This document shows, in pieces, positions 4,573 to 34,267 of a stretch of 64,000 bases of DNA; the stretch's first letter is position 1, and each line of letters begins with the position of its first letter. This DNA is from Candidatus Nomurabacteria bacterium (GTDB taxonomy: Bacteria > Patescibacteriota > Saccharimonadia > Saccharimonadales > JAGQNJ01): assembly GCA_023898625.1 (NCBI GenBank), contig CP060231.1:801890-865889 (forward strand), in the 5' to 3' direction. The position numbers were made by a program, and so were the translations under genes. Under the pieces are notes generated by a model. That model made no database searches. It was given only the letters and a program-made list of their open reading frames with translations, and had not been told where the DNA came from.

Positions 4573-5722
4573 TGCATAAGTTCAGAAACATATTGGACTC
4601 CTGAAGGCTAGCGATAGCTAGCTGGGAAGGAGTCTTTTTATGCAACAGATATATACTGAATCATTCTTGAGGGGTTATGCTCGTAAGACTATGAGATCTA
4701 TACAAGACATAACCCAACACCCATATAAACATGTAATTGAGCAAAGACTCAAGATAATTCAGTTCTATGATGATTTCGGGGAACAAGCCACCAGACAAGC
4801 TTTTAGCGTAAGTAGGAGCACTGTGTTCAGCTGGAAGAGGCGTCTAAAGGATAACAATGGCTCACTCAGATGTTTAGCTCCAAAGAGCACTGCACCAAAA
4901 CACAAACGCAAGCGAATGGTAGATATGCGTATTACTAACTTTATTCTAGAACAAAGAAGCTTACACCCTAAGCTAAGTAAAGATAAGCTAGCCGTATTAC
5001 TCAAAGATGAGTGTACAGCTTGGAATCTAAAACCACCTTCGGCATCTACCGTAGGTAGAATCCTCAAAGACCTTAAGTTTCAAGGCCTATTACCAAAATA
5101 TACCAGGTTAACCGTTTCAGGTGCTACCGGCAAACTACTTGAGAAACAAAGTCGTAAGCCAAGACTCAATAAACAACGCAGGAATGGTTATCAGCCTGAG
5201 CAACCAGGAGATATGCTACAGATAGACACTATTGTTAAGTTTATAAACGGTATACGCCGTTATGTACTTACAGCAGTAGATTACAAAGGTAGATTCGGCT
5301 TTGCCTATGGCTATACTAGCCCCAGTAGTACCAACGCAGCAGACTTCCTGAACAAACTGCAAGCTGTTACCCCATTTGAGATCAGACGAGTGCATCATGA
5401 CAATGGTAGTGAGTTCTACAAACACTTCATAAGAGCCTGTGATGAACGAAACATTGAACAGCTCTGGAACTATCCCAAAAGACCTAAGAATAACGGAATG
5501 GTTGAAAGATTTAACCGTAGCATCCAAGAAGAGTTTATAGACTGGAACCTAGATAATCTAGCCTATGACCTTGAGGATTTCAATAATTCATTGATGGACT
5601 GGTGTATATGGTATAACACAAAAAGACCACATTATGGACTTGGTTTAAAAAGTCCAATGCAGTACTTACTAGAAGTGTTACAATTAAGCCAACAGGAGTC
5701 CAGAATGTTATGGACGGATACA
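4573..5722 (+). mobile_element. IS481-family insertion sequence (about 1.15 kb) with imperfect terminal inverted repeats and a 5-bp CCCCC direct repeat
   Basis: The left end is TGCATAAGTTCAGAAACATATTGGACTCCTG (4573-4603). The reverse complement of the right end is TGTATCCGTCCATAACATTCTGGACTCCTG (5693-5722). The inner 10 nt TGGACTCCTG are identical. CCCCC flanks both ends directly (4568-4572 and 5723-5727). Confidence 0.75.
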
Positions 5723-5746
5723 CCCCCTTTCATTCCCCAACCATAA
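4640..5746 (+). CDS. IS481-family DDE transposase (HTH plus rve integrase core)
   Basis: 368 aa. The DDE triad candidates are LQIDT, HHDNGSEF and NGMVERFNRSIQEEF, plus the YNTKRPHYGLG motif. The ORF reads through the right IR and stops 24 nt beyond it. Confidence 0.85.
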   Translation: MQQIYTESFLRGYARKTMRSIQDITQHPYKHVIEQRLKIIQFYDDFGEQATRQAFSVSRSTVFSWKRRLKDNNGSLRCLAPKSTAPKHKRKRMVDMRITNFILEQRSLHPKLSKDKLAVLLKDECTAWNLKPPSASTVGRILKDLKFQGLLPKYTRLTVSGATGKLLEKQSRKPRLNKQRRNGYQPEQPGDMLQIDTIVKFINGIRRYVLTAVDYKGRFGFAYGYTSPSSTNAADFLNKLQAVTPFEIRRVHHDNGSEFYKHFIRACDERNIEQLWNYPKRPKNNGMVERFNRSIQEEFIDWNLDNLAYDLEDFNNSLMDWCIWYNTKRPHYGLGLKSPMQYLLEVLQLSQQESRMLWTDTPPFIPQP

Positions 5747-5993: not shown

Positions 5994-8900
5994 ATGAAAC
6001 TAAACCCCAAAGCCCTACTATCCAAACTACCACTACCTTTCTGGGCTTCCTTCTATCTATTTCTCATCATACTTACCATACCAGTACTAGCTTATATAGG
6101 CACACTCAGTAAAGCAGATCCCGGAACCCTAACAGTAACCATCAATCAAAAAACAGGCACAACAGACCCCAATCCTTCTTATACATCAGTATTCACTGTA
6201 GTATTCAATGAAGCCATAAACAGTAACACCTTCACCAACACAGACATTACTCTAGGTGGTACCGCACCAGGGCAAACTATCCAATCTATTACTGAAGCTG
6301 GAGCCTTCAACAAAACCACCTACGAAGTCCGAATCCAAGCCACCGGAGCTGGAACCATCATCCCAACCATAGCCCAAGAACTCATCACTGCCCAAAGCAA
6401 CAACACTAACACCAACCAAGCCTCTAGCTCATCAGACAATACAGTTACCTATGATGGAACCTATGCACCGAATGAATTTGTTACCACCTGGAAGACAGAC
6501 AACCCAGGAATAAGTGCCAGTAATCAAATAACTATACCTACACATTGGACTGGAGGATACAACTACAACGTAGACTGGGGAGACTCTACCACTAGCTCTA
6601 ACCAAACCGGAGACTCCACCCATACTTACTCAACACCAGGAACATACACCGTAAAAATATCCGGAACATTTCCTAGAATACATTTTGGAAAAGGTGTTTC
6701 AGATTATATAAAAATCTTAACTGTAGAGCAGTGGGGTTCAAACCCTTGGACTTCAATGAACGAGTCATTTTACTTCCCATATAATCTAACCATCCCTGCT
6801 ATAGATGCTCCGAACTTATCCAATGTAACTGATATGAGTTCTATGTTCTCGAAGGCAACTTCACTAAATCAATCACTTAATCATTGGGATGTAGGTAACA
6901 TAACTAATATGAGTAGAATGTTTAATGAGGCAAGTACATTTAACCAATCTTTGAACAATTGGAACACATCAAATGTGACAAATATTTCTGGAATGTTTGC
7001 ATACGCCACTTCTTTTAATGGTCTTATAAATGATTGGACCACATCAAACGTAACTGATATGTCTGGAGTGTTTGTAGGCGCTACAATCTTCAATCAGCCA
7101 CTAAACAATTGGGATACCAGTAGTGTAACCGACATGAGTTGGATGTTTTATCAAGCGACTTCTTTCAATCAATCTTTGAGCAATTGGAATACATCAAATG
7201 TGACAAAATTAAATATAATGTTCACCGAAGCGGCAGCTTTCAATCAGCCACTAAATAACTGGAATGTCGTTAATGTACTTGATTTATCAAATCTATTTGC
7301 TCGAGCGACTTCATTCAATCAACCTTTGAATAATTGGAATACCAGTAATGTTACGAATATGTCTGGACTGTTTGCGGGCGCTGCATCATTCAATCAACCT
7401 TTGAATAATTGGAATACCAGTAATGTTACGAATATGTCTGGACTGTTTGTGGGCGCTACGTCGTTTAACCAGCCACTTAGCGGCTGGGACTTGAATAGTG
7501 TGACAAATATGACGATGATGTTTTCTAGTACTTCAATTCAAGTTGCGCCTGGAGTAACATTATCTCCTTCCGGCCTCTCCACCACCAACTATGACTCTAC
7601 CCTAGCCGGTTGGTCATCCCAATCATTACAAAGTGGTGTCACCTTTGATGCCGGCACTAGCAAATACTGTAACTCTGAAACCCAAAGGCAAAGTATAATA
7701 ACCAATCACTCATGGACTATTAACGATGGTGGTAAAGATTGTAGTTCTATTGGCTCAACTGAATTCATTACTACCTGGAAGACAGACAACTCAGGAGTAA
7801 GCGGAAGCAATCAAATAACTGTTCCTACCTTTTCAGGAGAAACCTACAACTACAACGTAGACTGGGGAGACTCTACCACTAGCTCTAACCAAACCGGAGA
7901 CTCCACTCATACTTACTCAACACCAGGAACCTACACAGTCAAGATAACTGGAACCTTTCCTAGAATATATTTCGATGGAACAACCGATCACGATAAGATC
8001 CTAACAGTTGAACAATGGGGAACTAACCCTTGGACATCCATGAATGGTGCATTTTCGGGCGCATCCAACATCACAATCCCTGCAACTGACGCACCAGATT
8101 TATCCGGTGTGACTGATATGAACGGCATGCTCCAGGGGGTAAGTACCTTTAATAGTAATATAAACAACTGGGATGTCAGCAACGTAACTAATATGGGGAG
8201 TATGTTTGCGGGAACAACAAATTTCAACCAACCTCTCAACAGCTGGGATGTCAGCAATGTAACAGCAATGGATGGAATGTTTTTCGGGGCAACGTCTTTT
8301 AACCAAAATATTGACAGTTGGGACGTTAGTTCAGTAATTAATATGAGCGGTATGTTTTCTGGGGCAAGCGATTTCAATCAGCCCTTAAATAGCTGGGATG
8401 TCAGCTCGGTAGAAAATATGACAGGAATGTTTGGCGGTGCACTAGATTTTAACCAACCTCTAAATAATTGGAATACTGAGAATGTAACAGAAATGGTGGG
8501 AATGTTTGCTAGCGCAACTTCTTTTAATCAGTCTCTAGATTCATGGGATGTAGGTAATGTAACATTAATGAATTACATGTTTGGTAATGCTAATGGATAC
8601 TTAGAGCAAGCTTTTGCAGGTGTTCCATATGAAGATTGGCCAGCAATGTTCCAAGCATTATACAATCTTCCGATGTCAGGCTTATCAACCGCTAATTATG
8701 ATGACACTCTCATCTCATGGGCACAGCAAACAGTTCAACAAGGAGTAGTATTTGGTGGTGGAACGAGTAAGTATTGTTTGTCGGAGACTTATAGACAAGC
8801 ATTAATTAGTAACGATTCGTGGTCTATAACTGATGCCGGCAAAGATTGCCAAGGAGTGTCACTAGATAAGCCTCAAAACTTATCAGGCACGCCTTTTACT

Positions 8901-11900
8901 AGAATTGTTGAACTAGACTGGGATTCTGTAACTGGATCACACCATTACGATGTGCAATACAAAAAGACCTCTGAAAGTTCATGGGTTGATTACGTGGATT
9001 CAACAGTTTATGGGTCGTTTATTTCCATCTATGATCTAGATCCACAGACATCCTACGATTTTAGGGTTAAGACAGTTAGAAGTGATAGTATTACTAGTGA
9101 TTGGTCGGATATCCTAACGGTTACAACTCTACCACAATCAACGTATCATATAACAAATTGTCAACAGTTGCAGGCAATAAGTATCGACCCAGTTACTTAT
9201 GAGTTAGGAGATGCCTCCGGGAATTACATCATTGATAATAATATTGATTGTAGTGAGTCATCAAATTGGGATTGGCAAGGACTCCTGCCTGTAGAGATGC
9301 AACAAACTACAGGTTTTGTGAGCATATATAACATTACTAACGGAGGAGATTTTACCGGAAATTTTGAAGGCCAAGGACATACCATTAGTGGACTATACCA
9401 AGATTCTGATAGATATGGTGGGCTATTTTATACTATAAAGTACAGTAGTATCAAAGATATAAATCTCGCCAACATAGATGTAAATTTTACGTCTAATCAT
9501 ATAACGTCAAGTTGTCAGAATGAGTCTTCGTTTAGTGTTATCGATGAATCTAATGTTTGTAGTGCTATAGGTGGATTGGTTGGTGGCATGAGGGAAAACT
9601 CTAAGATTAGTAATATCTCAGTGGGTGGCCAAATACATGTTGACTCTACCCCCATTAGCAATGCGAATGGTTACGAAACAACAAATATTATTGGTGGCCT
9701 TGTTGGCGTTGGGTCTGATACGTCTTTTGATGGTGTTGTTGATATCAATAACTCATCATCTAACGTAAATATTACTGTTTCTAGCTCAAATAAGACGGTA
9801 GCACAGCCTGGGCTTCAAGATTTTGTAGCAAAAATATTTAGCCTGGATGTTGGTTATGAGAATAATGACCCGAACTATACTAGTATTATTGCTGGTGGGG
9901 TTATAGGTTCTGCGTTGGGATTTGAGATTTCAAATGTTCAGGCTAACGGAGGGGTGTCAACTAACGGTTATTATAATGTTAGATCAGTTGGTAATCTAGC
10001 TGGAGTTTTTGCTTCTGCTTTTGATTCTTCTATAAGTAATAGTACTGCAGGGGGAACTATCGAATGTCAGGGCGGAGGATCAATGAGCTCAATTGGTGCA
10101 GGTGTCGGTATTGTTATGAATATGATCCCGCTTAACCTTAGCAACTCTGAGAATATTTTTAGCAATGCATCTATACACGATATCTCAACATCAACAAATA
10201 TAAATTGTAGTGTTGATTATAGTTCATTTAGTGTTGGAGGTGTCATTGGGGCAACCTTTTCAATGGCTCCAGCAATAGAAGCTATCGAGCCAGAAGTTGT
10301 ATATAACAATCTTTCATCGACAGGCAACATAAGTATAGGGGCCAGTAAATATCGATCTTACACAAATTTTGCATACTCCATATTCACATACTTTGGTGGT
10401 CCACATAAAATTTTGGATGGTGTCGGTGGTATTATTGGGTCTGTTGCTGGTGGGCCAAGTGGTGCTGATTTTAAAATAAGTAAAACATCTGTAAAATCCT
10501 CTCACTCTAGTTCTAATATAACAGTAAAGTCTGGTATACCTATCGGTGGTCTTGTTGGTTTAACAGAGGGAAGAGTACTGATTGAGGAGAGCGACTCGTC
10601 AGGCAACATAGTAAGTGATACTACAGAATGGGCACAACAGCCTTCTGAATGTTACTTCGCACCAGATGCCAATAGTGATTGCGCTGGGTACTATTTTAGT
10701 TATGGTATTGCCGGCGGGCTAGTCGGTATGGCAAACGGCAATTGTTCTTATCCAATAACAGAATTCCAAGACGACAATACAAACTGTGAGAATCGTATTG
10801 ATATACAAAATGCAAAAGCAACGGGCAATGTCGAAGCACTCAATGGTAGGGGCATATCGGGCGGGTTAGTCGGGACGGCGAATAATACATTAATAAGCCG
10901 TTCATACTCTTCTGGAGAAGTACAATCGAGGATTGCCGGCGGGCTAGTCGGGGTAATTATCTCCGATTCGGTAAATAATCAAGGTATTGAAAACTCGCAT
11001 TCAACCAGCCAAGTAACTTCAACGTATGACCCAAGTAATCCAACATATTTTGATGAAGGGTTTTTGTTCGGAGGATCCATACCAATCGCTGGTGGACTAG
11101 CGGGGATATCCATGGCGCAAATATCTTCATCATATGCTTCTGGAGATGTTACCATTCAACAATCTGCCAGCCGGATAGGTAACGGAAGGTTATATGGGGT
11201 AGGTAGTGCCGGAGGGCTGGTTGGTTATGGAATCGCTGGCTTAGATACATCTAACTTAATTACCCTACCACCAGAGGATAGGCCAAACCCAGTGAATTTT
11301 GCACCATTCTTTACGCGTCCATCAACGGATCCACTCGGTGTTTTTGGCGTCGTTAACTCTTTTGCTACCGGTAAGGTTAGCGTACCTAGTAACGAGGTTT
11401 ATGTACCTATTATTGATAAGAATGTTCCTGTTATTAGTGCTGGTTTGATTGGTATGTATCCCGAATATCGTGATCCAGATTATATTTCACAGAATAATAT
11501 TTTGCCACTAGATTTTAATAGTTATTATGATGTTGAAAAAACAGGACAAGACGAATGTGTTAAAGATATTTCTGTAATTATTGGGGCACTTGCGTATCCA
11601 GATATGTATTCCGACTGTCACCCCATCAACACCGATGGTTCTCAACCTAACTACTTCAAGAACAACTCTACCAACCCCCCCTTGAACCAATGGAACTTCT
11701 CTACTATATGGAAGACTAACTGTACTAACTATCCAGACTTTGTAGGCTCAACCAACTGTAATCCATCCAACCCTCCAGAAAACCCAGGCAATGGCAATCC
11801 TCCAACAACTCCAACTACCCCAACCACCCCTACAACTCCTACAACCCCAACCAATCCTCCAAAGACTCCTAGTACCACCAAACCACCTACTCCCACAACT

Positions 11901-13769
11901 CCAACCACTCCTCCATCTCCAACAACTCCCACAGAATCAGACACCCCTTCATCTTCATCCAATAATCAGTACTACTCCAACCCTCAATCTACAGCACTAC
12001 CAGCTCCCCTATCTAAAGTAGTCAAAGGTTCCTTCATGCAATCTCTAGTGAACTATACTGCTAACAATATACCTAAACCCGTAGCTAAAGCCATTCCATA
12101 CAGCCTACTCATACTTCTACTAGCTCTCTCAGCCCTCTATGGCTATTCTAGCTATCTAGAAAACAAAAGAAGACAAGCTCTCCAAGCTCTCATCACTCGC
12201 TTTAAATCTCTACTATCGGCTAGAGCTACCTTCCTACGTATTACCTCCCACTACATCAATACACCGATCACTAAGATCCAAGGAACCATAGAACTACTAG
12301 CTATGGGTACTACTTCAACCACAACTGCTAATACCACAACAGCAAGTACCAACACCACAAACAATAACTCAAGTACTAACAATAACTCTACAGGCTCTAA
12401 TACCAACCCTCCTACTAATACCAGCTCTACTCCTCCAAGTAACACTACTAGCTCTACCAGTAATCCAGGCACTACCTACACCCCTAACTCTAGCTCCCAG
12501 ACTAGTTCAGCTTCCGTAAACAGCTCTAGCAATCAGGCTAGTACCACCAGCTCCATCAGTTCTACTCCTAGCTCCCCTAATAGCATTAGTATACCTATTA
12601 ATACTAACTCTAGCTCTCAGTCTGGTTCAGCTTCCGTGTTCACCTCAACCCTAGCCACTACAGCTACCACTCTAACTATCCCAGAAGCCTCTATCGTAGC
12701 CTCTAAGTCAGCCATCAAGAGTCTCACTAACCATGCCAATGAACTACTAGATGAAGGACAATCCCTCACCGGAAGACAACAAGCTAACATCAGAAACCTA
12801 GAACAAAGAAAAGGACTTAGCTTCCTAACCCATCCTTTCTTCTGGCTCCCAGTAGTAGTTATCTCTACCTTAGTAGTACTACTCAACATCATCTTCATTC
12901 AAGCTGAACGCTATACCCCTACAGCTATTACTATTGCTTCTCAACTTATCCTAGGCTTCGTTGGTGTTATAGCTTTAGGTGTCAGCTACTACTTCTACCG
13001 TTCCTTCCAGTCCCAAAGACAAGCTCTACTAACCGAACAAGAAATAGAACAAGAGTTCAATGCTCGCCAAGCTAACTTCATAGCTGATGCCTACAACAAG
13101 CTCAACGATGACATCATAATCCTAGAAGGTGTCAGCCAAGACCTAGCTAAGTATCCTAAAGTCCGTAACTTCAACCAAGGCCTCAATGAACTAAAAGACA
13201 TAGTCTCCCAACTAGAAAAACTCAGCAACCTATCTAAGCATGTCCCAGGACTGCAATACCACACCAACCTAAGCAGTACTATATCTACTACCCTAACTAA
13301 CCTCAGATCCCTAGCTGACCAACAGAACATCACTATAACTACCAACAACATCAAACCCAACCAAAACGTCAACATAGAAGCTAATGCTCTAACCCATCTA
13401 CTGTCAGCTCCACTCAAGAATGCTATCTCAGCTAGTACTGCTGGCTCCAATATAGAACTATCCCAATCCAACCACAAAGCCAACAAATCTAACCAGATAA
13501 ATAAACCCAACACAGTAACTACCAACCTTAGCAATACCAACCTACCTATCCAAATAACTATTACCGATCATGGCAAAGGCATACCCCCAGAACAACTAAA
13601 CAATATCTTTACCCCATTCAACTCAGCCCATAGCCTAGAACACTTCACTGATACCGGACTAGGACTAGACCTCTACCTATGCAAAGTAATTGCCGAACAA
13701 TACAACGCCAACCTAACCATCACCAGCCAACCAGGAGAAGGCACAACAGTGATAGTGGGGATGGGGTGA
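5994..13769 (+). CDS. Giant (2,591 aa) membrane-anchored adhesin-like protein fused to a C-terminal histidine-kinase module
   Basis: Single uninterrupted ORF. Domain order: N-terminal TM anchor; Ig-like segment; two modules of PKD-like (YNYNVDWGDS...HTYSTPGTYTVKI) plus about 25-aa DUF285/BspA-type LRRs (FNQPLNNWNTSNVTNMSGMF); FN3; about a dozen GLUG-type GGLVG repeats; PT-rich stalk; TM; H-box (ATFLRITSHYINTPITKIQGTIELL); S/T-rich tract; two TM helices; HATPase_c boxes (LKNAISAS, DHGKGIP, IFTPF, GLGLDLYLCKVIAEQYNANLTITSQPGEGTTV). Confidence 0.85.
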   Translation: MKLNPKALLSKLPLPFWASFYLFLIILTIPVLAYIGTLSKADPGTLTVTINQKTGTTDPNPSYTSVFTVVFNEAINSNTFTNTDITLGGTAPGQTIQSITEAGAFNKTTYEVRIQATGAGTIIPTIAQELITAQSNNTNTNQASSSSDNTVTYDGTYAPNEFVTTWKTDNPGISASNQITIPTHWTGGYNYNVDWGDSTTSSNQTGDSTHTYSTPGTYTVKISGTFPRIHFGKGVSDYIKILTVEQWGSNPWTSMNESFYFPYNLTIPAIDAPNLSNVTDMSSMFSKATSLNQSLNHWDVGNITNMSRMFNEASTFNQSLNNWNTSNVTNISGMFAYATSFNGLINDWTTSNVTDMSGVFVGATIFNQPLNNWDTSSVTDMSWMFYQATSFNQSLSNWNTSNVTKLNIMFTEAAAFNQPLNNWNVVNVLDLSNLFARATSFNQPLNNWNTSNVTNMSGLFAGAASFNQPLNNWNTSNVTNMSGLFVGATSFNQPLSGWDLNSVTNMTMMFSSTSIQVAPGVTLSPSGLSTTNYDSTLAGWSSQSLQSGVTFDAGTSKYCNSETQRQSIITNHSWTINDGGKDCSSIGSTEFITTWKTDNSGVSGSNQITVPTFSGETYNYNVDWGDSTTSSNQTGDSTHTYSTPGTYTVKITGTFPRIYFDGTTDHDKILTVEQWGTNPWTSMNGAFSGASNITIPATDAPDLSGVTDMNGMLQGVSTFNSNINNWDVSNVTNMGSMFAGTTNFNQPLNSWDVSNVTAMDGMFFGATSFNQNIDSWDVSSVINMSGMFSGASDFNQPLNSWDVSSVENMTGMFGGALDFNQPLNNWNTENVTEMVGMFASATSFNQSLDSWDVGNVTLMNYMFGNANGYLEQAFAGVPYEDWPAMFQALYNLPMSGLSTANYDDTLISWAQQTVQQGVVFGGGTSKYCLSETYRQALISNDSWSITDAGKDCQGVSLDKPQNLSGTPFTRIVELDWDSVTGSHHYDVQYKKTSESSWVDYVDSTVYGSFISIYDLDPQTSYDFRVKTVRSDSITSDWSDILTVTTLPQSTYHITNCQQLQAISIDPVTYELGDASGNYIIDNNIDCSESSNWDWQGLLPVEMQQTTGFVSIYNITNGGDFTGNFEGQGHTISGLYQDSDRYGGLFYTIKYSSIKDINLANIDVNFTSNHITSSCQNESSFSVIDESNVCSAIGGLVGGMRENSKISNISVGGQIHVDSTPISNANGYETTNIIGGLVGVGSDTSFDGVVDINNSSSNVNITVSSSNKTVAQPGLQDFVAKIFSLDVGYENNDPNYTSIIAGGVIGSALGFEISNVQANGGVSTNGYYNVRSVGNLAGVFASAFDSSISNSTAGGTIECQGGGSMSSIGAGVGIVMNMIPLNLSNSENIFSNASIHDISTSTNINCSVDYSSFSVGGVIGATFSMAPAIEAIEPEVVYNNLSSTGNISIGASKYRSYTNFAYSIFTYFGGPHKILDGVGGIIGSVAGGPSGADFKISKTSVKSSHSSSNITVKSGIPIGGLVGLTEGRVLIEESDSSGNIVSDTTEWAQQPSECYFAPDANSDCAGYYFSYGIAGGLVGMANGNCSYPITEFQDDNTNCENRIDIQNAKATGNVEALNGRGISGGLVGTANNTLISRSYSSGEVQSRIAGGLVGVIISDSVNNQGIENSHSTSQVTSTYDPSNPTYFDEGFLFGGSIPIAGGLAGISMAQISSSYASGDVTIQQSASRIGNGRLYGVGSAGGLVGYGIAGLDTSNLITLPPEDRPNPVNFAPFFTRPSTDPLGVFGVVNSFATGKVSVPSNEVYVPIIDKNVPVISAGLIGMYPEYRDPDYISQNNILPLDFNSYYDVEKTGQDECVKDISVIIGALAYPDMYSDCHPINTDGSQPNYFKNNSTNPPLNQWNFSTIWKTNCTNYPDFVGSTNCNPSNPPENPGNGNPPTTPTTPTTPTTPTTPTNPPKTPSTTKPPTPTTPTTPPSPTTPTESDTPSSSSNNQYYSNPQSTALPAPLSKVVKGSFMQSLVNYTANNIPKPVAKAIPYSLLILLLALSALYGYSSYLENKRRQALQALITRFKSLLSARATFLRITSHYINTPITKIQGTIELLAMGTTSTTTANTTTASTNTTNNNSSTNNNSTGSNTNPPTNTSSTPPSNTTSSTSNPGTTYTPNSSSQTSSASVNSSSNQASTTSSISSTPSSPNSISIPINTNSSSQSGSASVFTSTLATTATTLTIPEASIVASKSAIKSLTNHANELLDEGQSLTGRQQANIRNLEQRKGLSFLTHPFFWLPVVVISTLVVLLNIIFIQAERYTPTAITIASQLILGFVGVIALGVSYYFYRSFQSQRQALLTEQEIEQEFNARQANFIADAYNKLNDDIIILEGVSQDLAKYPKVRNFNQGLNELKDIVSQLEKLSNLSKHVPGLQYHTNLSSTISTTLTNLRSLADQQNITITTNNIKPNQNVNIEANALTHLLSAPLKNAISASTAGSNIELSQSNHKANKSNQINKPNTVTTNLSNTNLPIQITITDHGKGIPPEQLNNIFTPFNSAHSLEHFTDTGLGLDLYLCKVIAEQYNANLTITSQPGEGTTVIVGMG
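6471..8849 (+). repeat. Internal tandem duplication of a PKD-like plus LRR plus cap module inside the giant gene (module 1 at 6471-7742, module 2 at 7758-8849)
   Basis: Both modules start (N/T)EF(V/I)TTWKTDN and end GGKDC/AGKDC. An approximately 85-nt stretch is nearly identical (6566-6650 vs 7847-7931). Confidence 0.85.
7312..7461 (+). repeat. Two near-perfect tandem 75-bp (25-aa) LRR units
   Basis: Copies at 7312-7386 and 7387-7461 read cattcaatcaacctttgaataattggaataccagtaatgttacgaatatgtctggactgtttg. They differ only in the last few bases. Confidence 0.9.
8871..9135 (+). other. Fibronectin type III-like domain of the giant protein
   Basis: PQNLSGTPFTRIVELDWDSVTGSHHYDVQYKKTSESSWVDY...YDFRVKTVRSDSITSDWSDILTVTTLP matches the FN3 pattern. 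Confidence 0.7.
9400..11240 (+). other. GLUG-motif repeat region of the giant protein
   Basis: Recurrent (I/V)(G/A)GL(V/A)G followed by N/S-rich turns: IGGLVGGM, IIGGLVGVG, IGGLVGLTEG, IAGGLVGMANG, ISGGLVGTANN, IAGGLVGVI, IAGGLAGIS, AGGLVGYG. Confidence 0.6.
11761..11965 (+). repeat. Pro/Thr-rich low-complexity stalk (PTTPTTPTTPTTPTNPPKTPSTTKPPTPTTPTTPPSPTTPT)
   Basis: Direct reading of the translation. It generates the antisense GVVGVVG shadow ORF at 11729-11962. Confidence 0.9.
12180..12300 (+). other. HisKA-like dimerisation/phosphoacceptor helix with the candidate phospho-His (codon 12249-12251)
   Basis: ENKRRQALQALITRFKSLLSARATFLRITSHYINTPITKIQGTIELL, compared with the canonical FLANVSHELRTPLTSI H-box. 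It lies immediately after the TM helix at 12091-12160. Confidence 0.55.
13383..13766 (+). other. HATPase_c (catalytic ATP-binding) domain of the giant protein
   Basis: N-box LKNAISAS, G1 ITDHGKGIP, F IFTPF, and G2 TGLGLDLYLCKVIAEQYNANLTITSQPGEGTTV. Confidence 0.75.
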
Positions 13770-26850: not shown

Positions 26851-27615
26851 ATGTCACTATTTACCAAACAATTAACGGACCAGCACGACAATATTAATAA
26901 TGAAACAGATGCAACAGATATTAATTTATCATTAAGTCCATTAGATAATAGTAGTAAAGTCCAATACCAAGAACTACATTTAAAAACCACAAATAAGTTA
27001 CGTATTGTCAATAATTGCCTATTGGCCGTTTTAATAGTTATTAATACCTATATCATCCTAGTGCCTTTGATGCCACAACTTATCTATTCTAATAATATTA
27101 ATTCTGGCACGCAAAAACTGCTTGAGGAAACCATAAAGCAAAGGGTTGATAGCAATAAACCTACCAATAATGTTAGTAATGTAGCTACTTCCATAGCAAA
27201 CAAGAGCACTCCTAATACCTTAACCGTACCTTCTATGTTGTTAGACGAGCCAATTATTGAAGGGCAAAACTCTATCAAAGCATTAAGACAAGGTGTTTGG
27301 CGATGGCCTGGTGGTAGCACACCAGATAAAGGCGGAAATACTGTTTTGGCAGGACATCGTTTTACATATAATAAACCTAAGGGTACTTTTTACTTTCTTA
27401 ACAAGATAACCATAGGAGACACCATTGGTGTTACCTGGAGTGGCCATACATATATGTATAAAGTTATTGAGACCAAGACTGTTAAAACCTCGCAAACTGA
27501 TGTTTTGCATCCAACGGAACAACCAAGATTAACATTATATACCTGCACACCACTTTGGAACCCTAAGGATAGGCTCGTGGTAATTGCTGAGCTTCAGAAG
27601 AAGGATACTAAGTGA
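26851..27615 (+). CDS. Sortase (class E-like transpeptidase)
   Basis: 254 aa with an N-terminal TM, NTVLAGHRFTY, and the catalytic TLYTCTP (TLxTC). Confidence 0.85.
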   Translation: MSLFTKQLTDQHDNINNETDATDINLSLSPLDNSSKVQYQELHLKTTNKLRIVNNCLLAVLIVINTYIILVPLMPQLIYSNNINSGTQKLLEETIKQRVDSNKPTNNVSNVATSIANKSTPNTLTVPSMLLDEPIIEGQNSIKALRQGVWRWPGGSTPDKGGNTVLAGHRFTYNKPKGTFYFLNKITIGDTIGVTWSGHTYMYKVIETKTVKTSQTDVLHPTEQPRLTLYTCTPLWNPKDRLVVIAELQKKDTK

Positions 27616-27737: not shown

Positions 27738-30503
27738 TTATTTATTATTACCTCTACGAACCCACACAAACACCCCAACTCCACAACTAATAAGTACAAT
27801 TGCGGTTAACATGCTAGCAATAAGTACTTGCCCGGTGTTAGCAAATATAGTCGCTGGCTTATTCTTTACTTGATTAGTGCTTGACTGAGGTACAGGAGAG
27901 CTTGTTGTATTTTCTGTGGAATTAGGTGTGGTTGTAGTAGGATTTGTTGTTTCTGAATCCTGAACAGGGGGATTTACTATAGAAGCAGTAGTAAACCCGA
28001 AATCTAGTGTGTGATTATTAGCACCACTTGGTCCGGTATCAAATGTTACAACTGCTGGATTTGATGCAGATAGGGGGGTCTGCAAACTTAAAGTTACGGC
28101 ATTTGAATCGTTCTGTGAGTTACCATCGTTAATCCTAGAATCTGCTGTTGTTAGGTAAAGTCCGTTCAGCCGGTCTTGTGTCATATAATCTGATTCATTT
28201 CTCAATTCTAATCTAAACCCTTGTGTATTAGTAGTTAATCCAGATACGCCGTATATATGGCTACTTGAACTGTTCATGGTATTACCATCTTCATCTTGAA
28301 CTCGATTAGAAAAGATATAATTCCCATTGGAATCTGTTATAGCAGTTGCCAGTACATTATTAGCATTATCAAGTAAGCTTACGGTGACACCAGGGATAAC
28401 TGGCTCGCCTGCATCTTGAATGCCATTGGAGTTTTTATCGTTCCAAACTAAGTTGCCCACCTCGATCGGAGCCATTTTACAAATAGCCTCAATATCACCA
28501 ATACCATTGGCTTTACCGAAGTATGGTGTTCCAGCTACGGCATTCTGGTAATCACTCTGATATAAACGGTAAGCATTATTTTTTGTTCCATTATCGCTAT
28601 TGTACCAACGTAGGCCTCCACTCCATATTCCATCCGGAATGCCTCTCAATGGGTTCATAGCTGAGCTTACAATAGAACTAAATCCTGGTACTTGCGCTAA
28701 GCCACCCTGAGCCCCCTCGTCATGAAATAACGGATTATCGTTATCATCTGCATAGAAGTCGAAATTGTAGAACTCAAAATCACCAGGTCCTTGAGGTAAA
28801 CTATCAACAACTGCATGTACTCCACTACTTCCAGGACCTTTACCATCGCAGAGGCCGGCATTTTCTAAAGTAAATTTTCCATTTACTGAGCAAGCACGTA
28901 ATAAGTCGCCTGTACTGGTGGCTATATATAGAGTATTGTCGGTATTGTTGGTATTAAAAGCTTGGTAGCCCATTTGATCACCGTATCGATCGCGTAACCC
29001 TATTGTCATACTACCATTTGATCCAAATGTAATATCAGTCAAAATTGGTTGCGGTGCGGTTAAGATCTTGACTCCATTTCCCATAGGGGGCTGACCATCA
29101 TTGACTAACGGATCATCAAATGAATCTATCCAAGGAAGCCAGTTGGCTCGTTGCCAACAACCAGTGTTGTTGTTGCCATTTGAACAAGAGCGACCATAAT
29201 TCAATGGAAATTCTAATGTCGGAGCTGTTGAAAATGTCATGGTTTGTGGAATAAAGCTGTATACGTATGCTCGTAGATCGGATTGATTTCTGCTAGTTTG
29301 TGCTGAGCAGGTCATGCCAACGTAACCTGTGCCTTGGTAAACAGTTACAGCAAAAGGCCTAACATCAGAAAGAGTGCAAGGCTGGTGCTGACCTGATGCG
29401 CTACCTTCAGGTAATGCGTCAGCGCCACTATTCGGTAGGTTAAGAGGCAAATTATACTCACTTACACTCTTTGTAGTATCTAAGTTGGATACTTTATATA
29501 TTTTTCTGTTATTTAGATTTATAGTTAATAATGAATCATTAGATGTATTATCTGGATCCGAAAATAATGCCAGACCACCTAGTCCGCGCTTGTTAATTGT
29601 GCTGAACGAAAATTCATCACGAGCCCAACATAAGTTTGTATTCTGGCTTTGCTGTCCATCTCGTGAATCGCAGTTTGTATTGCTGATAGGATGTGGATCT
29701 GTGCCTGTGTCTGGTATTGTAGCCACATGAATTGGAGCAGTAGAGCCTGTTCCAGAATCGGGGACAGGAGAAGCATATATTGCACCGGAACCACCTGGAC
29801 CAAAATCAGCATGTCTTTTCATAAACGCCCCACTATATAACGTTTGCGTTGACCGTCTGTATGCCAACCCCCATGTTGATCCTACCAGACCAACTTTACC
29901 AAGTTGCATGGGCGGGGTAGTAGTGCCAGAGATGTTGAATGGGAAACCCACCAGCGTATCATTATTAGTATTGCTGTCGGCAATATTTCCGAAGCTATAG
30001 CATGAAGTAACTAAATTTGGATTATTTTGGCAGAATTCGTCAGGTCGATTGATCCCTAGGTTTGCTACACCTCCTGAAGCAACGAACTGTGTTGTAGATT
30101 GATTATCTTCCCCTAATTGTGATGGATACGTACTTGCTGGAATATCAGAAAATTCAATACGAAACTGCGTGGAAGTACAGGTACCCATATTAAGAGCGTA
30201 TTCGCCATTTGAGTTAGTTTTTTGCGCCCCACATAATTGCCCATCAGAATCAAAGCCTTTTACTGTAATATCTTTGGCACCTAAGTCTGTTGCAATAGAG
30301 TTATTGATTGTTTGGACATTATCTCGCTTACCATTACCGTTATAATCATAAAAAACAACTCCCGATACCGTTGCGCTATCAGCAAAAGTACTGAGCAAAA
30401 CTATTACACCTATTACGCCAAAAAATAATGCAACCAAACATCCACGAACCATGTTTTGATGTTTTGAAGATATTTTTCCGTATCTAGTAGCTAACTTATC
30501 CAT
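27738..30503 (-). CDS. Large cell-wall-anchored adhesin with SdrD/Cna-B-like domains and a sortase sorting signal
   Basis: 921 aa with an N-terminal signal anchor. B-type repeats: [17 protein letters not shown] and [31 protein letters not shown]...DSNGNYIFS. The C-terminus reads FANTG plus hydrophobic helix plus RRGNNK. Confidence 0.8.
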
Positions 30504-30699
30504 AGTCCCCCCATGATTTTCAATAAATACAGTATATCATCAATGATTGTGTTTTTATGTATGAAAAAACTTTACTAAAAGCATCACAAATAATGTTCTG
30601 GTCTAAGGGGCATCAAATCCGATATGGCAGCAGTTACAGTACGACTATAGAACTTTAATAGGGGTGGCACCTCGTAAAAGTGTTGTAAAAAACCATCGC

Positions 30700-31650
30700 T
30701 ATAGATATTCGTCAAATGGTACTATACATATAGTGAATAATGTTCTAGAACTACGAGAGCTAAAACAGATTTTGAAACTTAGTTCCTGGTCGCAAGAACA
30801 GCTTGCAGCCGTTAGGTGTATCTTTTCCTGCGCTCAATGCTTGATTAACGGTCGTGCCCTAGGCCAAGGCACGAGACCGAATCAATTTACTTTACATTCA
30901 AATAGCAGGAGCAACTGAGGTATCTAAAGATGAAGCCTAACAAAGTCGACAACGGCTCTTGCTCAATCTTTAACCGCCCAACAAATTATCTCAGATAAAG
31001 ATCTCCGAATACCTTACACTGCATTTGACATACCACACGAATACTATCGAGGGCAGTAATACCATGACGTTAGTTGATGTTAACGACGTACTATTCGACG
31101 GCAAGCAGTACTATCTTAATCGACGCATATTGAGCAGCTGAAGCAAAAAAATCAACTAATCTGTTTGTACTGGTTGCTTGATGTAAGCTTGCAGCCACGA
31201 GAGATTCATAATTGGTGAAGATTTACCGCTTAATCTACACCTTAGATTAATGAACGGATTGTAGGTGATGCAGGTCATCTTAGGAAGCACACTGTCAGGA
31301 TCATGGGGGCAAATGTACCGCCTGCAAATTGGCAAGAAGGTTCCTACGCTTAGCAGAAAAGCATTAGGAAGATAATAGTAAAAGCAAAGAAAGTATCATC
31401 TCGAAAATAGCTCATTTTCATGCAAAGTTCGAACAAATTCATCCTTTAGTGATGGCAATGGTCGTACTGGACGTCTATTAATGCTGGCTCAAGCTCTTCA
31501 GTCTAACATCGCACCACCGCTCGTAGTAAAGGAACGCAAACATGCCTACTTTATAAATATCTCGAAGTAGCACAAACCAAAAACAACTATTTACCTTTGG
31601 AATTGTTCGTTTGCTGAACCGATAAAATTTTCAGGAGATCTATTACGAAA
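30700..31650 (+). pseudogene. Decayed Fic/DOC-family (AMPylase-type) gene, multiple stops and frameshifts
   Basis: Fragments in different frames: LRELKQILKLS..QEQLAA (HTH-like), TNTIEGSNTMTLVDVNDVLFDGK, and the core motif FSDGNGRTGRLLMLAQAL at 31447-31500. That motif is preceded by an out-of-frame IHP (HPFxxGNGRxxR broken by 1 nt). Confidence 0.7.
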
Positions 31651-32795
31651 GAAGTGGAATCATATTTACTAATGATTTATTGGGCCAGGCCTCTATAAAC
31701 TCAATGCTCTAACTGTCACTACATTTTCTTCAACAACCTCGACATCAGCAAAGAACATAATTGTATAAGCGGACCCTACTTCTTTCGGATTCATAATATT
31801 TCAACAGGATTTAACAAGTGTAGCTTTCTCATCGTACGTACGTCCACGTTCTCCATTAAAACTACCGTCTTCAATACAGTCTCTATGACGCCTTTTCCAT
31901 CGTTCTGTAGGGATTGCACGTTTATCAAAAGCCATGGTCATTCAACAATTATAACAAACCAAACGGGAAATTTGCTAGTGTAAAACCACCCCAAATGCGA
32001 CTTTTTCGTAACTTTCGCTAGTTCTGAGTGTAGCAGTTTCGGTTCTTTACCCAAAAAGTTGGCAGGGGTAAAGGAAGGGTTTTCTGAAGAACAACCAATC
32101 AGACTTTGATCCAGCAGAGTTAGATGATATCATGAAGATATATGCATAGCTGAGTCACTATGAAAGGGTCTTCGCTTTTTATGGTGATGATTATTGGCTT
32201 GCAACTAATCCCACAAAACGGCCAGGACTTAAGGCAGGTTGCGTTTGGATCTAGAATTTAGACAATAGTTATCCCACTTGTATGGCCTAGCGAATATTCA
32301 AAATCCATCATCAATGGCGAAGATTGCGATTTCTCGGTCTCAAATTTCATTGACTGTAGCAATTACAGAATTATATTTTTCTGAATCTAAGCTTTTCAAA
32401 CATCCTAAACAACAGGGTGATTGCTGCTTCATGATTATTGGAGCAGCTAAGTTCAATGTCGCGCCATTAATCGTTCCGTTGCTGTTGCTAAATACTTGGA
32501 AAATATATACTCTGCCATATCCCAGCTTGATGTTTTCATTAAAACCAACTATAGGTAAAATTATGGAATTAGAATTTGAAATCCAAGCAGCCACAAACTT
32601 GTAATTGCCCACAGTTTTCCAAACTCCAGTCTCCTAGAGTCACTGGAAATAAAAGCGGTTTTGCTAACTCCTGAGCTTGGTGGTTTGAAGAATACACTTT
32701 ATGCCTGCCTTTGTGTCTTTAAGAAGTACATCCGGAAATCTTAGATATCTATATAGCTTGGACGCTATCCATAAGTCGCCAACAGCCCTGTAAAG

Positions 32796-33212
32796 TTACT
32801 CTTGAAAACCTAATAGCGCAATTTGCTGATGCTCAGGAAATAATATAGCGAGCGAGATGAAGAAACAAGATAATACGAAGAAGGTAAATATGCAACGACT
32901 AGCATTGAGGGAATTGAGAGCATCTTGTTTGAAGTAGCGTACGCAATCGGCATTAAATCCGGCTATACTAATATCAAATTTTGGTTTAGCCTTTAGCTAA
33001 CAAAAAATCCAACCATGCAGTAACTCGTGAATAATAATTGTATTTATGTATGTTATAGGTGGGTGACCCAACTGTTGACACTGATATTGTCGGTAACGTA
33101 ATCCTGGTGATAGCTCCAATAAAGAATAAAATATCATCTGTAGAGTTAAAACGTATGACATTTGTTTATCTATTTTGATAGTGCTAATCTTTTTCATTTT
33201 AACTGTATTCAT
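32796..33212 (-). pseudogene. Putative zincin-like membrane peptidase gene interrupted by an in-frame TAG
   Basis: ...NTIIIHELLHGWIFC*LKAKPKFDISIAGFNADCVRYF... carries an HExxH motif. The stop at 32997-32999 splits an otherwise continuous frame. Confidence 0.4.
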
Positions 33213-33418
33213 GAAATAAGTTTAGCATACTCAGATAAGCATTAGGATTCTTTGTAAATACAAAAATTTGGTAAAACTTGAACTTTACTAACTGAAAAAT
33301 AATAGAAGAATGTGTTATTAGATATGAAATACACCTGACCCTATAACATATTGAAGGAAACGATACTTGTCTAAATTTTACAGATCAGTTCGATCAGGAT
33401 AATAGCTTCTTGTAAGTT

Positions 33419-33613: not shown

Positions 33614-34267
33614 ATGGCAAAATTAGAGTTAACTAAGCCTACTTTATTTATGCTATATGGCTATCCTGGTTCAGGTAAGTCGTACTTAGCAAAAAATCTG
33701 AGAGACACTATTCAATCTGCGCATGTTCATGCAGACAAAATTCGATATCAGTTATTCGAGAATCCTAGATTTGATCGTGCCGAGAACGAAATTGTTGATC
33801 AGTTAATGGAGTACATGACTGAGGAGTTTTTAGATGCAGGAGTCTCTGTTATTTTTGATACAAATGCAATAAAAAAGTCCCAAAGACGCATTTTACGAGA
33901 TATTGCTAGAAAAAAGAAGGCCGAAAGTATGCTTGTTTGGCTTCAAATAGATGCAGACAGCTCTTTTGCACGTGCATCACAGAGAGATAGACGTAAGACA
34001 GAGGACAAAGTTGCTCAACCGATAGATCGACCGATGTTTGATAGCATAAGTTCAAGGATGCAGAACCCAGGGCATGACGAGGATTACATAGTATTGAGTG
34101 GCAAACATTCGTTCCAAATGCAAAGGAGTGCCATAATCAAAAAACTATATGATCTAAAGTTGATTCGTACGGAAAACGTATCACCTAATGTAGCAAAGCC
34201 TGGCTTAGTGAATCTAGTTCCAAACTCCTATAATGGCGATAGTAGACGAAATATTGCAATTCGGTAA
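33614..34267 (+). CDS. P-loop kinase-like ATP-binding protein (AAA_33 / zeta-toxin-like fold)
   Basis: 217 aa with Walker A YGYPGSGKSYLAKNL. Confidence 0.6.
   Translation: MAKLELTKPTLFMLYGYPGSGKSYLAKNLRDTIQSAHVHADKIRYQLFENPRFDRAENEIVDQLMEYMTEEFLDAGVSVIFDTNAIKKSQRRILRDIARKKKAESMLVWLQIDADSSFARASQRDRRKTEDKVAQPIDRPMFDSISSRMQNPGHDEDYIVLSGKHSFQMQRSAIIKKLYDLKLIRTENVSPNVAKPGLVNLVPNSYNGDSRRNIAIR

Follow-up and report, generated by a model that had tools for sequence, protein, structure and literature searches.

A giant adhesin-like surface protein with a predicted tandem-DHp histidine-kinase module and its relatives in Saccharibacteria

Described sensor kinases and adhesins

Classical HisKA-type sensor kinases (EnvZ, PhoR, WalK, SrrB, HK853, ZraS, CpxA) carry an outside sensor between an N-terminal transmembrane (TM) helix and a second TM helix that enters the DHp hairpin, which is joined to a CA domain with N, G1, F, and G2 boxes. 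An acidic residue (E/D) directly following the phospho-acceptor histidine (H+1) serves as the general base in these enzymes, and the cognate response regulator is usually encoded adjacent to the kinase gene. The protein described here, encoded in the 64-kb stretch of DNA that was analyzed (the window), has the same outside sensor, DHp hairpin, and CA domain, and classical HisKA kinases were the best PDB matches of its C-terminal module in both sequence and fold. However, the ectodomains of classical kinases comprise ~100 to 300 amino acids (aa), whereas ~2,000 aa of adhesin modules are present here. The window protein also differs in having tandem DHps split by a TM hairpin, with the His on the first (DHp1) and not on the CA-attached second (DHp2), a Tyr instead of Glu/Asp at H+1, and no HAMP or PAS domain between the second TM segment (TM2) and DHp1.

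Three other types of kinase share single features with this module. CheA is generally known to keep its phospho-His domain apart from a His-less helical domain bearing the CA, a likeness that is a functional analogy only; unlike in CheA, both helical domains are here HisKA-type DHp hairpins tethered to the membrane, and no Hpt fold, P2, P5, or chemoreceptor array is present. DivL and other His-less pseudo-DHp kinases likewise have a DHp-CA core with a substituted acceptor position, but in the window protein the same chain adds an intact DHp with a conserved His. The monomeric HWE-type kinase EL346 is a well-known precedent for working without a homodimeric DHp bundle. However, EL346 is soluble and builds its DHp-like bundle within the chain from a single hairpin, whereas in the window protein a duplicated DHp would provide the second half.

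With regard to the ectodomain, the hybrid two-component systems of Bacteroides also join a kinase to a large glycan-binding-type sensor (beta-propeller/Y_Y_Y) that is extracytoplasmic. In contrast to these, the giant protein ends with its CA domain and has no fused receiver or AraC-type output domain, its kinase core is of another kind, the ectodomains are up to 3-fold larger, and the phylum is different. The ectodomain repeats matched the DUF285 and PARCEL models of BspA-like proteins of Mycoplasma and Listeria and resemble GLUG/M26-type adhesins, but those proteins are lipoproteins or wall-anchored adhesins without a cytoplasmic signaling module. Literature on histidine kinases of Saccharibacteria and Patescibacteria and on tandem DHp/HisKA domains yielded no description of the family reported here, which is apparently undescribed.

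Gene, ectodomain, and family

A single open reading frame (ORF) at 5994..13769 (+ strand, as for all features below) encodes 2,591 aa without an internal stop, comprising a giant ectodomain and a histidine-kinase-type module. The sequence-only reading had described this ORF as one uninterrupted chimera of an adhesin-like ectodomain covalently joined to a histidine-kinase transmitter. The frame was indeed open throughout, its continuity and the domain matches bear out the covalent join, and the gene is confirmed as real. The protein does not stand alone, however, since a large conserved family has the same layout. An IS transposase gene (rve DDE; 4640..5746) lies between secY and the giant gene, outside the protein. 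A scan for promoters and terminators returned matches at chance level.

The protein contains four hydrophobic segments (aa 16-38, 2033-2055, 2281-2303, and 2312-2335). The first (6039..6107), identified by hydropathy and flanking charges with the K-rich N-terminus inside, would act as a signal anchor or signal peptide and was also present in 70 of 79 full-length family members. No Cys, and hence no lipobox Cys of a lipoprotein signal, occurs within the N-terminal 45 aa, and the NF045896 model (Mbov_0838-type lipoproteins) scored 390 bits, below its cutoff of 500. Two tandem modules with a mutual identity of 51% follow (aa 161-585, 6474..7748; aa 590-954, 7761..8855), each combining a PKD-like domain with DUF285/PARCEL repeats. 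Pfam DUF285 (PF03382) matched in 5 stretches (E 5e-156) and PKD matched twice, while NCBIfam PARCEL (TIGR02167) reached 148 bits against a cutoff of 30. The next domain is an FN3 (aa 960-1043, 8871..9122; Pfam fn3 E 1.1e-5), which when scanned alone scored 25.9 bits, just over the cutoff of 25. A GLUG-like region (aa 1193-1748, 9570..11237) with 11 GG[LVI]xG motifs, counted as G[GA][LVI][VIAL]G, leads to a conserved motif of the extracellular tail, WNFSTIWKTNCTNYPDF (aa 1900-1916, 11691..11741), which directly precedes a Pro/Thr-rich stalk read directly from the sequence (aa ~1923-1998, 11760..11987). Of 66 giant family members, 22 carry the tail motif, which lies ~125 aa ahead of the H-box; contigs L001 and L003 have it too. 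Across the family, P/T/S/G/N residues made up a median of 51% of the 100 aa preceding TM2. Judging by these domain types, the ectodomain may serve in ligand binding and adhesion.

The N-terminal TM anchor, the two PKD-like plus DUF285 modules, the FN3 domain, and the PT stalk had all been predicted in the sequence-only reading and were recovered. Where it had counted about a dozen GLUG repeats, 11 motifs were found, but the Pfam GLUG model (PF07581) stayed below its threshold in this region (13.9 bits; cutoff, 20.5), as did M26_N. An Ig-like segment proposed near the N-terminus received no Pfam support.

An exhaustive profile search with the C-terminal module, with results collected as 50%-identity cluster representatives, located the same module at the extreme C-terminus in dozens of clusters, 55 representatives having E values of ≤1e-30. 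Among the best 149 representatives, in all of which the module was C-terminal, 86 had a length of 900 aa or more and 34 reached 2,000 aa or more (maximum, 4,413 aa), so that a search for the fused architecture elsewhere, as had been suggested, found it recurring in these 86. The organism-level names of family members were exclusively Candidatus Saccharibacteria, at least two paralogues occurred in one Saccharibacteria metagenome-assembled genome (MAG), and current labels read "hypothetical protein," "FN3 domain-containing," or "Ig domain-containing." A scan of genome contigs recovered only a 63-aa HATPase remnant (L004) in another Saccharibacteria MAG, and a metagenome scan provided two short contigs informative for the in-frame fusion. 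Two further homologue searches with family profiles were dominated by generic kinases or hydrophobic words and added no members.

Ectodomains are diverse across the family, including DUF285/PARCEL, FN3, NHL propellers, DUF11, and Y_Y_Y; among 25 giant members, 9 had NHL propellers and 4 had Y_Y_Y. The closest full-length relative (P0009; 2,291 aa) has the N- and C-terminal regions in common with the window protein. In strain L003, the module was 99% identical to that of the window protein and the ectodomain ~38% identical. These comparisons show an ectodomain that is freely swapped on a conserved module, even between 99%-identical strains.

The predicted kinase module

The C-terminal module consists, in order, of a TM helix, DHp1, a TM hairpin, DHp2, and CA. 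TM2 (aa 2033-2055, 12090..12158) contains a conserved IPY motif and is immediately followed by DHp1 helix alpha1 (aa 2056-2104, 12159..12305) with the H-box TSHYINTP, in which the codon of His2086 occupies 12249-12251. Helix 1 of HisKA matched here, on a fragment, with an E value of 2e-6 (28.1 bits; cutoff, 26.9). DHp1 is a complete helical hairpin: both of its helices are covered in the alignment of the family profile with the DHp of HK853 (PDB), and helix alpha2 (aa 2231-2271, 12684..12806), recognized by alignment and in the AlphaFold2 (AF2) model, bears the highly conserved motif LTNHxxELLxEGQSLTG. The loop between the two helices holds an S/T/N/P-rich stretch of 126 aa (aa 2105-2230, 12306..12683), 80% of which is S/T/N/P and for which AF2 gave a pLDDT of 31 to 41. 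Varying in length among close relatives and absent from distant ones, the tract is a disordered, lineage-specific insertion that interrupts the alpha1-alpha2 loop of DHp1. An interpretation of this tract as a spacer between two half-domains was ruled out, as it is inserted within a complete DHp1. A 126-aa S/T-rich tract located in the cytoplasm is unusual and was counted against the best explanation.

The TM3-TM4 hairpin (aa 2281-2303 and 2312-2335, 12834..12998), assigned by hydropathy and family conservation, separates DHp1 from DHp2-CA, and the His-bearing DHp is therefore not adjacent to the CA. Pro2286 of TM3 ("WLP" motif) is invariant and Gln2317 of TM4 near-invariant; polar or Pro residues are conserved within TM2, TM3, and TM4 across the family. 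DHp2 (aa 2336-2414, 12999..13235) is a degenerate DHp hairpin identified by alignment to SrrB and by hhalign. Together with the CA it aligns to SrrB residues 2-227 (PDB), with DHp2 covered over its full length. The residue aligned with the phospho-His is Asn2368 (codon 13095-13097); this position is variable in the family and was His in just 12 of 131 members. hhalign aligned DHp1 with DHp2 as homologous in register (E 7.5e-5, probability 62%). The CA/HATPase_c domain (aa 2464-2588, 13383..13757), supported by Pfam, family conservation, and fold match, scored E values of 2e-15 to 5e-17, over the Pfam cutoff, and contains the N (13413-13436), G1 (13566-13586), F (13605-13625), and G2 (13656-13673) boxes. 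All NCBIfam kinase models scored far under their cutoffs for this module.

Most of this layout had been anticipated. The TM helix before the H-box, the H-box helix and its His codon, the TM hairpin, an S/T-rich tract of about 130 aa, and a complete HATPase_c domain were all found where expected, and the location of H-box and ATPase domain on the same cytoplasmic side is consistent with the positive-inside rule. A second DHp-like segment was likewise confirmed, but the residue at its His position is Asn2368 and not, as proposed, a Tyr (Tyr2367). The internal duplication suggested on the basis of a shared (R)RQAL motif holds for the segments, which are homologous according to hhalign; the motif itself is no evidence for it, as even close relatives do not conserve it.

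The AF2 model of the module (579 residues, 25-sequence alignment) had a mean pLDDT of 72 and a pTM of 0.65 despite 125 disordered residues, with helices where predicted and with TM2 and DHp1 alpha1 forming one continuous helix. A pTM of this size over 579 residues would require most ordered parts to be held in one fixed frame. The best Foldseek matches were DHp-CA cores, including ZraS (TMt 0.75), HK853, CpxA, and DivL (4q20).

Conservation was assessed in an alignment of 131 sequences (130 top representatives plus the window protein). The phospho-acceptor His was kept in 119 members (91%) in a box of the form S-H-Y-x-N/R-T-P, the Thr at H+4 in 115, and the Pro of the box is also kept. In the CA, the N-box Asn was present in 130/131, the G1 Asp in 124/131, and the G1/G2 glycines in 128 to 129 of 131 sequences. 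The conservation of both acceptor His and ATP-binding boxes points to selection for both. As the acidic H+1 residue is replaced by Tyr in 117 of the 131, including the window protein, the autokinase chemistry may differ or be weak. The DHp1 His plus exactly two hydrophobic segments ahead of DHp2 was found in 112/131, and, with a single exception, the 83 members scored as having the full architecture space His and pseudo-His 154 to 164 aa apart; the S/T insertion stretches this distance to 282 aa in the window protein. The geometry of the two hairpins matches: His2086 is 30 residues from TM2 and 18 from the hairpin tip that follows it, and the corresponding distances of Asn2368 are 33 residues (from TM4) and 16. 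The window protein has every defining element (S-H-Y-x-N/R-T-P box, two TMs, His-less DHp, CA), and the best explanation is that it is a member of a distinct, Saccharibacteria-associated family of predicted transmembrane sensor histidine kinases.

Phosphotransfer models and possible host-contact sensing

We favor, with moderate confidence, a sensor kinase that works as a single-chain pseudo-dimer, its CA phosphorylating His2086 of the neighboring DHp1. A ligand on the host cell surface would bind or pull the ectodomain and displace TM2, which would run on as one helix into DHp1 alpha1, His2086 being only ~30 residues from the membrane. The TM3-TM4 hairpin would hold both DHp hairpins at equal depth below the membrane, where DHp1 and DHp2 most likely pack as one four-helix bundle, the usual homodimer thus being mimicked by a single chain. 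The CA, carried on the His-less DHp2, would then phosphorylate His2086, and the phosphoryl group would be passed on to a response regulator whose gene lies in another part of the genome. The activity as a kinase, this partner, and the arrangement of DHp1 against DHp2 are inferred.

Alternatively, the protein could be a signaling kinase built like CheA, in which DHp2 pairs with DHp2' of a second chain as a four-helix bundle and DHp1 is a separate substrate domain, as P1 is to P3-P4. The DHp2 beside the CA has lost its His and retains a full DHp fold, DHp domains are normally dimeric, and the His is located on a domain other than the CA-attached one, as this arrangement would have it. However, DHp1 is fixed to the membrane at both ends by TM2 and TM3 and so cannot swing as P1 does, while His and pseudo-His lie at matching depths and keep a tightly fixed distance from each other, both of which suit side-by-side packing. 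As the pTM of the monomer model also suggests an intramolecular arrangement, a CheA-like homodimer appears rather unlikely, although it retains some weight.

At the sensitivity afforded by a three-sequence receiver profile, applied to all six-frame ORFs, and by Pfam scans of 30 ORFs, the 64-kb window contains no receiver domain, as the sequence-only reading had reported; none was found in L001 either, and both results weigh against the favored model. The lack of a nearby regulator, the conserved Tyr in place of a catalytic acid, and a HisKA match (E ≤ 1e-4) in only 2 of the 25 giant members would all fit a module that mainly anchors the surface protein in the membrane and binds or hydrolyzes ATP for another purpose, such as conformational control of the adhesin or scaffolding, with no His-Asp phosphotransfer. 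We consider such a pseudokinase unlikely, as the acceptor and the catalytic site are conserved together, which a working kinase or phosphatase predicts, with the H-box His, Thr, and Pro kept and all ATP-binding boxes near-invariant. Orphan kinases are, moreover, generally common.

It is far less probable that the module is (also) made as a separate product, translated from Met2015 inside the ORF (ATG 12036). In L001, a gene caller placed the start of the homologue at the corresponding Met, and a weak AAAGG lies 8 to 12 nucleotides upstream of ATG 12036, but this may be mere coding sequence, because the K-G-S-F-M peptide is itself conserved. A stand-alone 517-aa kinase in L001 was rejected, since the frame is open upstream through adhesin tail and stalk; with a truncated AAA_33 gene adjoining, L001 is taken to be a deletion or chimera. 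In P0009, L008, L009, and dozens of giant representatives, as in the window, module and ectodomain moreover share one reading frame.

That adhesin and kinase genes were misjoined at the PT repeat, or a frameshift missed, is hardly credible: the join does adjoin repeats that assemblers handle poorly, contig L002 is chimeric at both ends, and the exact 2,591-aa protein is absent from the protein collection, but the fused architecture in 86/149 best representatives comes from many samples and pipelines, L008, L009, and P0009 are in frame, L003 joins a GLUG ectodomain tail to the module (though across a 100-N gap), and the independently assembled L002 is open across window positions 11895-13570 at 98.6% identity, with no stop between stalk and H-box. 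As window positions 12263-12421 are duplicated at its 3' end, L002 was judged chimeric and used solely for the junction it spans (stalk/TM/H-box). Taken as a whole, the earlier interpretation was partly supported, including its supposition of a Saccharibacteria-like source organism.

The Saccharibacteria and other Patescibacteria that have been cultivated live on other bacteria, to which they attach as hosts, and to our knowledge both host recognition and life-cycle regulation in Patescibacteria are largely unexplained. For the family described here, contact or ligand sensing of the host cell is plausible, and host-surface contact may be coupled to a phosphorelay. Transposon sequencing (Tn-seq) of Southlakia epibionticum identified several adhesin-type surface proteins as essential for epibiotic growth (PMC10633639).

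With large, fast-changing adhesin ectodomains physically coupled to a conserved kinase core, the family offers a concrete candidate for the sensing of host contact, and one that can be tested. This core departs from the textbook layout in that a TM hairpin separates its tandem DHps, the His is located on the distal one, and H+1 is Tyr; it could reveal a new, possibly monomeric, kinase construction. As labels are uninformative and HisKA passes so few giant members, two-component inventories of such genomes are probably undercounted. We tentatively suggest, as a possibility, that these proteins are single-chain "adhesion histidine kinases" in which DHp duplication gives an intramolecular four-helix phosphotransfer bundle, host binding or pull on a monomeric giant adhesin leads directly to His phosphorylation, and a repertoire of paralogues with rapidly swapped ectodomains serves episymbiotic Saccharibacteria in host recognition and the switch between free and attached life. 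Eukaryotic adhesion GPCRs are generally known to have a similarly large, modular adhesive ectodomain covalently tied to a membrane signaling unit, although folds and chemistry are unrelated; if the suggestion is true, single-chain adhesion histidine kinases would be their bacterial counterpart.

Gene, ectodomain and genomic setting

The giant gene (window 5994..13769, + strand) was read as 2,591 codons without interruption, as claimed in the sequence-only reading, whose description was accurate apart from the second-DHp residue, the (R)RQAL motif, the GLUG repeats and the Ig-like segment. A Pfam search of the whole protein found five DUF285 stretches (E 4.7e-156), named PARCEL repeats by NCBIfam, and two stretches each of PKD and PKD_4. 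The two PKD-plus-DUF285 modules described earlier are present and share 51% identity. The proposed FN3 segment passed the fn3 cut-off when scanned alone (25.9 versus 25 bits), and the S/T-rich tract was confirmed (126 aa; 80% S/T/N/P). The GLUG repeats were recovered as 11 GG[LVI]xG motifs (aa 1193-1748), but the Pfam GLUG model remained sub-threshold, and no Pfam profile supported the N-terminal segment described as Ig-like.

The gene sits within a ribosomal-protein cluster in the order S5, L15, SecY, IS transposase, giant gene, InfA, S13, S11, S4, RpoA and L17. The IS-type DDE transposase (rve, HTH_32; window 4640-5746, + strand) lies between secY and the giant gene. It is multi-copy: the same 876-kb contig contributes at least four further proteins (USN95448, 95600, 95780 and the fragment 95147) to its 90%-identity cluster. 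Neither adk nor map, the usual genes after secY, is present between secY and the giant gene. Housekeeping proteins of the window have identical counterparts in NCBI, recorded on an 876,243-bp MAG contig under the name Candidatus Nomurabacteria (USN95xxx); the same proteins also match entries of a 939,581-bp contig that is named Candidatus Saccharibacteria or Saccharimonadales. Identical proteins carry conflicting labels, and the one naming Nomurabacteria is probably wrongly assigned.

A sortase gene (window 26851-27615, + strand) adjoins the gene of a 921-aa surface protein (window 27738-30503, - strand) that combines an SdrD_B-like domain with an S/T/P-rich stalk and ends in a TM at the C-terminal side; this second large surface protein of the window carries no kinase module. 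Between the latter gene and tRNA-Trp, about 2.9 kb (window 30504-33418; GC 0.377) contain no ORF of at least 110 aa on either strand. Even at E<=0.1 nothing in Rfam matched this interval, which resembles none of the other window ORFs and is not repeated elsewhere in the window. An apparent gene fusion of 772 aa (window 40160-42478, + strand) joins thymidylate kinase (aa 20-218) to ThyX-type thymidylate synthase (aa 288-500).

The C-terminal kinase module

The module consists of TM2, DHp1 (His2086), a TM3-TM4 hairpin, DHp2 (Asn2368) and CA. Hydropathy located exactly four hydrophobic segments (aa 16-38, 2033-2055, 2281-2303 and 2312-2335). Flanking charges favour an inside N-terminus, an outside ectodomain, a short outside loop between the last two segments, and an H-box and ATPase that are both cytoplasmic, as had been claimed. 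Pfam placed HATPase_c at aa 2464-2588 (E 2.3e-15) in the whole protein, confirming the reported ATPase domain; HisKA was sub-threshold there (aa 2077-2105, profile positions 2-30 of 66 only). Taken alone, the juxtamembrane fragment reached the HisKA cut-off (28.1 versus 26.9 bits), which upholds the assignment of the first H-box. No NCBIfam kinase model scored near its cut-off on the giant protein.

Conservation was assessed in 131 C-termini, of which one is the window sequence and the other 130 belong to top representatives of 50%-identity clusters. The first His is present in 119/131, within an S-H-Y-x-(N/R)-T-P box (H+1 Tyr, 117/131; H+4 Thr, 115/131; Pro, 117/131), and CA has near-invariant boxes (N-box Asn, 130/131; G1 Asp, 124/131; G1 and G2 glycines, 128-129/131). 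The alignment therefore shows a putative acceptor His and ATP-binding site that are conserved jointly. The pseudo-His position in the second helical segment varies freely (S17, K16, E15, Q13, D12 and H12 among the 131); the window residue is Asn2368 and not Tyr as first read, Tyr2367 being aligned with the Ser that precedes His.

When the family profile was compared with PDB sequences, the first segment aligned with both DHp helices of HK853 (profile 51-117 to chain 10-77), and the second segment plus ATPase aligned with SrrB (residues 2-227, E 5e-37), from which each segment is judged to be a complete DHp domain. DHp1 and DHp2 align in register, His facing pseudo-His (hhalign E 7.5e-5, probability 62%). 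This profile-profile alignment supports the suggested internal duplication, but the (R)RQAL motif cited for it is not conserved, even in close relatives.

The S/T tract is absent from distant members, of which one, P0011, has a Pfam HisKA match covering positions 2-62 of 66. As HisKA is near-full without the tract, the latter is a lineage-specific insertion, variable in length, in the DHp1 alpha1-alpha2 loop. This insertion accounts for the 282 aa between His and pseudo-His in the window protein. By crude hydropathy, a His-bearing H-box followed by exactly two hydrophobic segments before DHp2 was found in 112/131 aligned sequences. Of these, 83 additionally showed the upstream TM, and with a single exception their His and pseudo-His lie 154-164 aa apart; 70/79 full-length members had an N-terminal hydrophobic segment. 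Topology and domain order are shown.

AF2 prediction of the module from a 25-sequence alignment (mean pLDDT 72, pTM 0.65) gave TM2 and DHp1 alpha1 as a single unbroken helix (aa 2028-2104), a disordered stretch (aa 2105-2230), DHp1 alpha2 (aa 2231-2271), TM3 (aa 2281-2303), TM4 with DHp2 alpha1 (aa 2311-2384), DHp2 alpha2 (aa 2390-2414) and an alpha/beta CA domain. The best PDB matches in Foldseek were DHp-CA cores, led by ZraS (TMt 0.75) and followed by HK853, CpxA, WalK and DivL.

A family with exchangeable ectodomains

The giant protein is not a one-off chimera. When 1.84 billion cluster representatives were searched exhaustively by HMMER with the module profile, 55 proteins reached E<=1e-30. 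In the top 149 representatives, the match always lay at the extreme C-terminus, with an almost constant distance from H-box to C-terminal end (365-374 aa). Their lengths extend to 4,413 aa: 86 measure 900 aa or more, 68 of them 1,400 aa or more and 34 of them 2,000 aa or more. The family also includes smaller members, of about 600-650 aa.

The last 562 aa have close relatives at 54-99% identity. On L002, a contig from another sample that is chimeric at both ends, 98.6% identity over window 11895-13570 spans the stalk, TM2, H-box, S/T tract and TM hairpin into the ATPase, and the open frame supports the continuity of the stalk-to-H-box junction. Contigs L008 and L009 (about 64% identity) are likewise open to the contig start, an FN3 end and Pro-rich stalk leading into TM2. 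L003, from a 99% identical strain sharing the downstream infA-rpsM context, encodes a different, GLUG-type ectodomain (L003 1-1298 versus window ~10400-11788) and has a 100-N scaffold gap ahead of the module. The GLUG-type part of its ectodomain is only about 38% identical, beside a kinase module and downstream ribosomal genes at 98-99% identity, and the two sequences converge abruptly at window 11615; the comparison suggests that ectodomain cassettes are replaced by recombination.

The 55% identical relative on L001, whose locus adjoins tRNA-Trp, was considered as a stand-alone 517-aa gene or ancestral solo kinase and rejected, the upstream frame being open through an adhesin tail motif and stalk. 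There (L001 300-860), an AAA_33 gene truncated to 88 aa, the window counterpart (33614-34267) having 217 aa, abuts the tail, stalk and module, which points to either an ectodomain deletion by large rearrangement or a chimeric contig. In another Saccharibacteria MAG (L004), all that is left of the family ATPase domain is a C-terminal stretch of 63 aa (L004 3498-3686; 65% identity). Flanked by metG and a TatD-like gene, it looks like a decayed member.

In 25 giant members scanned together, HATPase_c was found in 25/25 and HisKA at E<=1e-4 in only 2/25. Their ectodomains carried NHL or other beta-propellers (9/25), FN3 (9/25), DUF11 (6/25), Y_Y_Y (4/25), Big_7 (3/25), M26_N (3/25) and DUF285 (1/25), and a W-x-F-x-x-W...Y-P-x-F tail motif preceded the stalk in 22/66 giant members. 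Free exchange of ectodomains on a conserved module is shown.

Database names include 'hypothetical protein [Candidatus Saccharibacteria bacterium]' (two paralogues in MAG EKI60), 'fibronectin type III domain-containing protein [Candidatus Saccharibacteria...]', 'putative Ig domain-containing protein [bacterium]' and 'uncharacterized repeat protein'; one IMG entry reads 'signal transduction histidine kinase/sugar lactone lactonase YvrE'. A literature search found no description of the family. A Tn-seq study of Southlakia epibionticum reported essential adhesin-type surface proteins and no kinase of this kind (PMC10633639). The sequences are already in databases, neither annotated nor described as an adhesin-kinase family.

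Proposed mechanism and meaning

The giant protein is proposed to work like transmembrane HisKA-type sensor kinases, from which its architecture departs in two respects: the His-bearing DHp is not the CA-adjacent one, and H+1 lacks the acidic residue. Ligand binding or tension at the ectodomain would move TM2, and hence DHp1 alpha1 in the same helix, and CA, tethered to the His-less DHp2, would phosphorylate His2086 on DHp1. The TM3-TM4 hairpin would hold the two DHp hairpins at equal depth: the distance to the membrane helix above is 30 residues for His2086 (TM2) and 33 for Asn2368 (TM4), and that to the hairpin tip below is 18 and 16 residues, respectively. Because of this equal depth, we favour a predicted intramolecular four-helix bundle of DHp1 and DHp2, which would mimic the usual homodimer. 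One rigid assembly is compatible with the pTM of 0.65, obtained for 579 residues of which 125 are disordered. The main mechanistic rival is a CheA-like dimeric arrangement of the module.

A role as pseudokinase or anchor is kept alive by two observations. HisKA kinases have a catalytic Glu/Asp at H+1; in contrast, this position is a conserved Tyr here. In addition, there is no response regulator nearby: as previously stated for the 64-kb window, none was found there by a three-sequence receiver profile over all six-frame ORFs and Pfam scans of 30 ORFs, and none was found on L001. Conventional two-component kinases also occur in the genome, as indicated by a 371-aa PAS-HisKA-HATPase_c gene (window 34994-36109, + strand) with a full HisKA match and no adjacent receiver; its product is a small, canonical and apparently cytoplasmic kinase.

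To our knowledge, extracytoplasmic sensors of remotely comparable size occur among kinases only in the Bacteroides hybrid systems, which are smaller than this ectodomain and built differently. Overall, the family has an unorthodox kinase core and, in ultrasmall bacteria that live as episymbionts, offers a direct connection of adhesion with signalling that can be tested.
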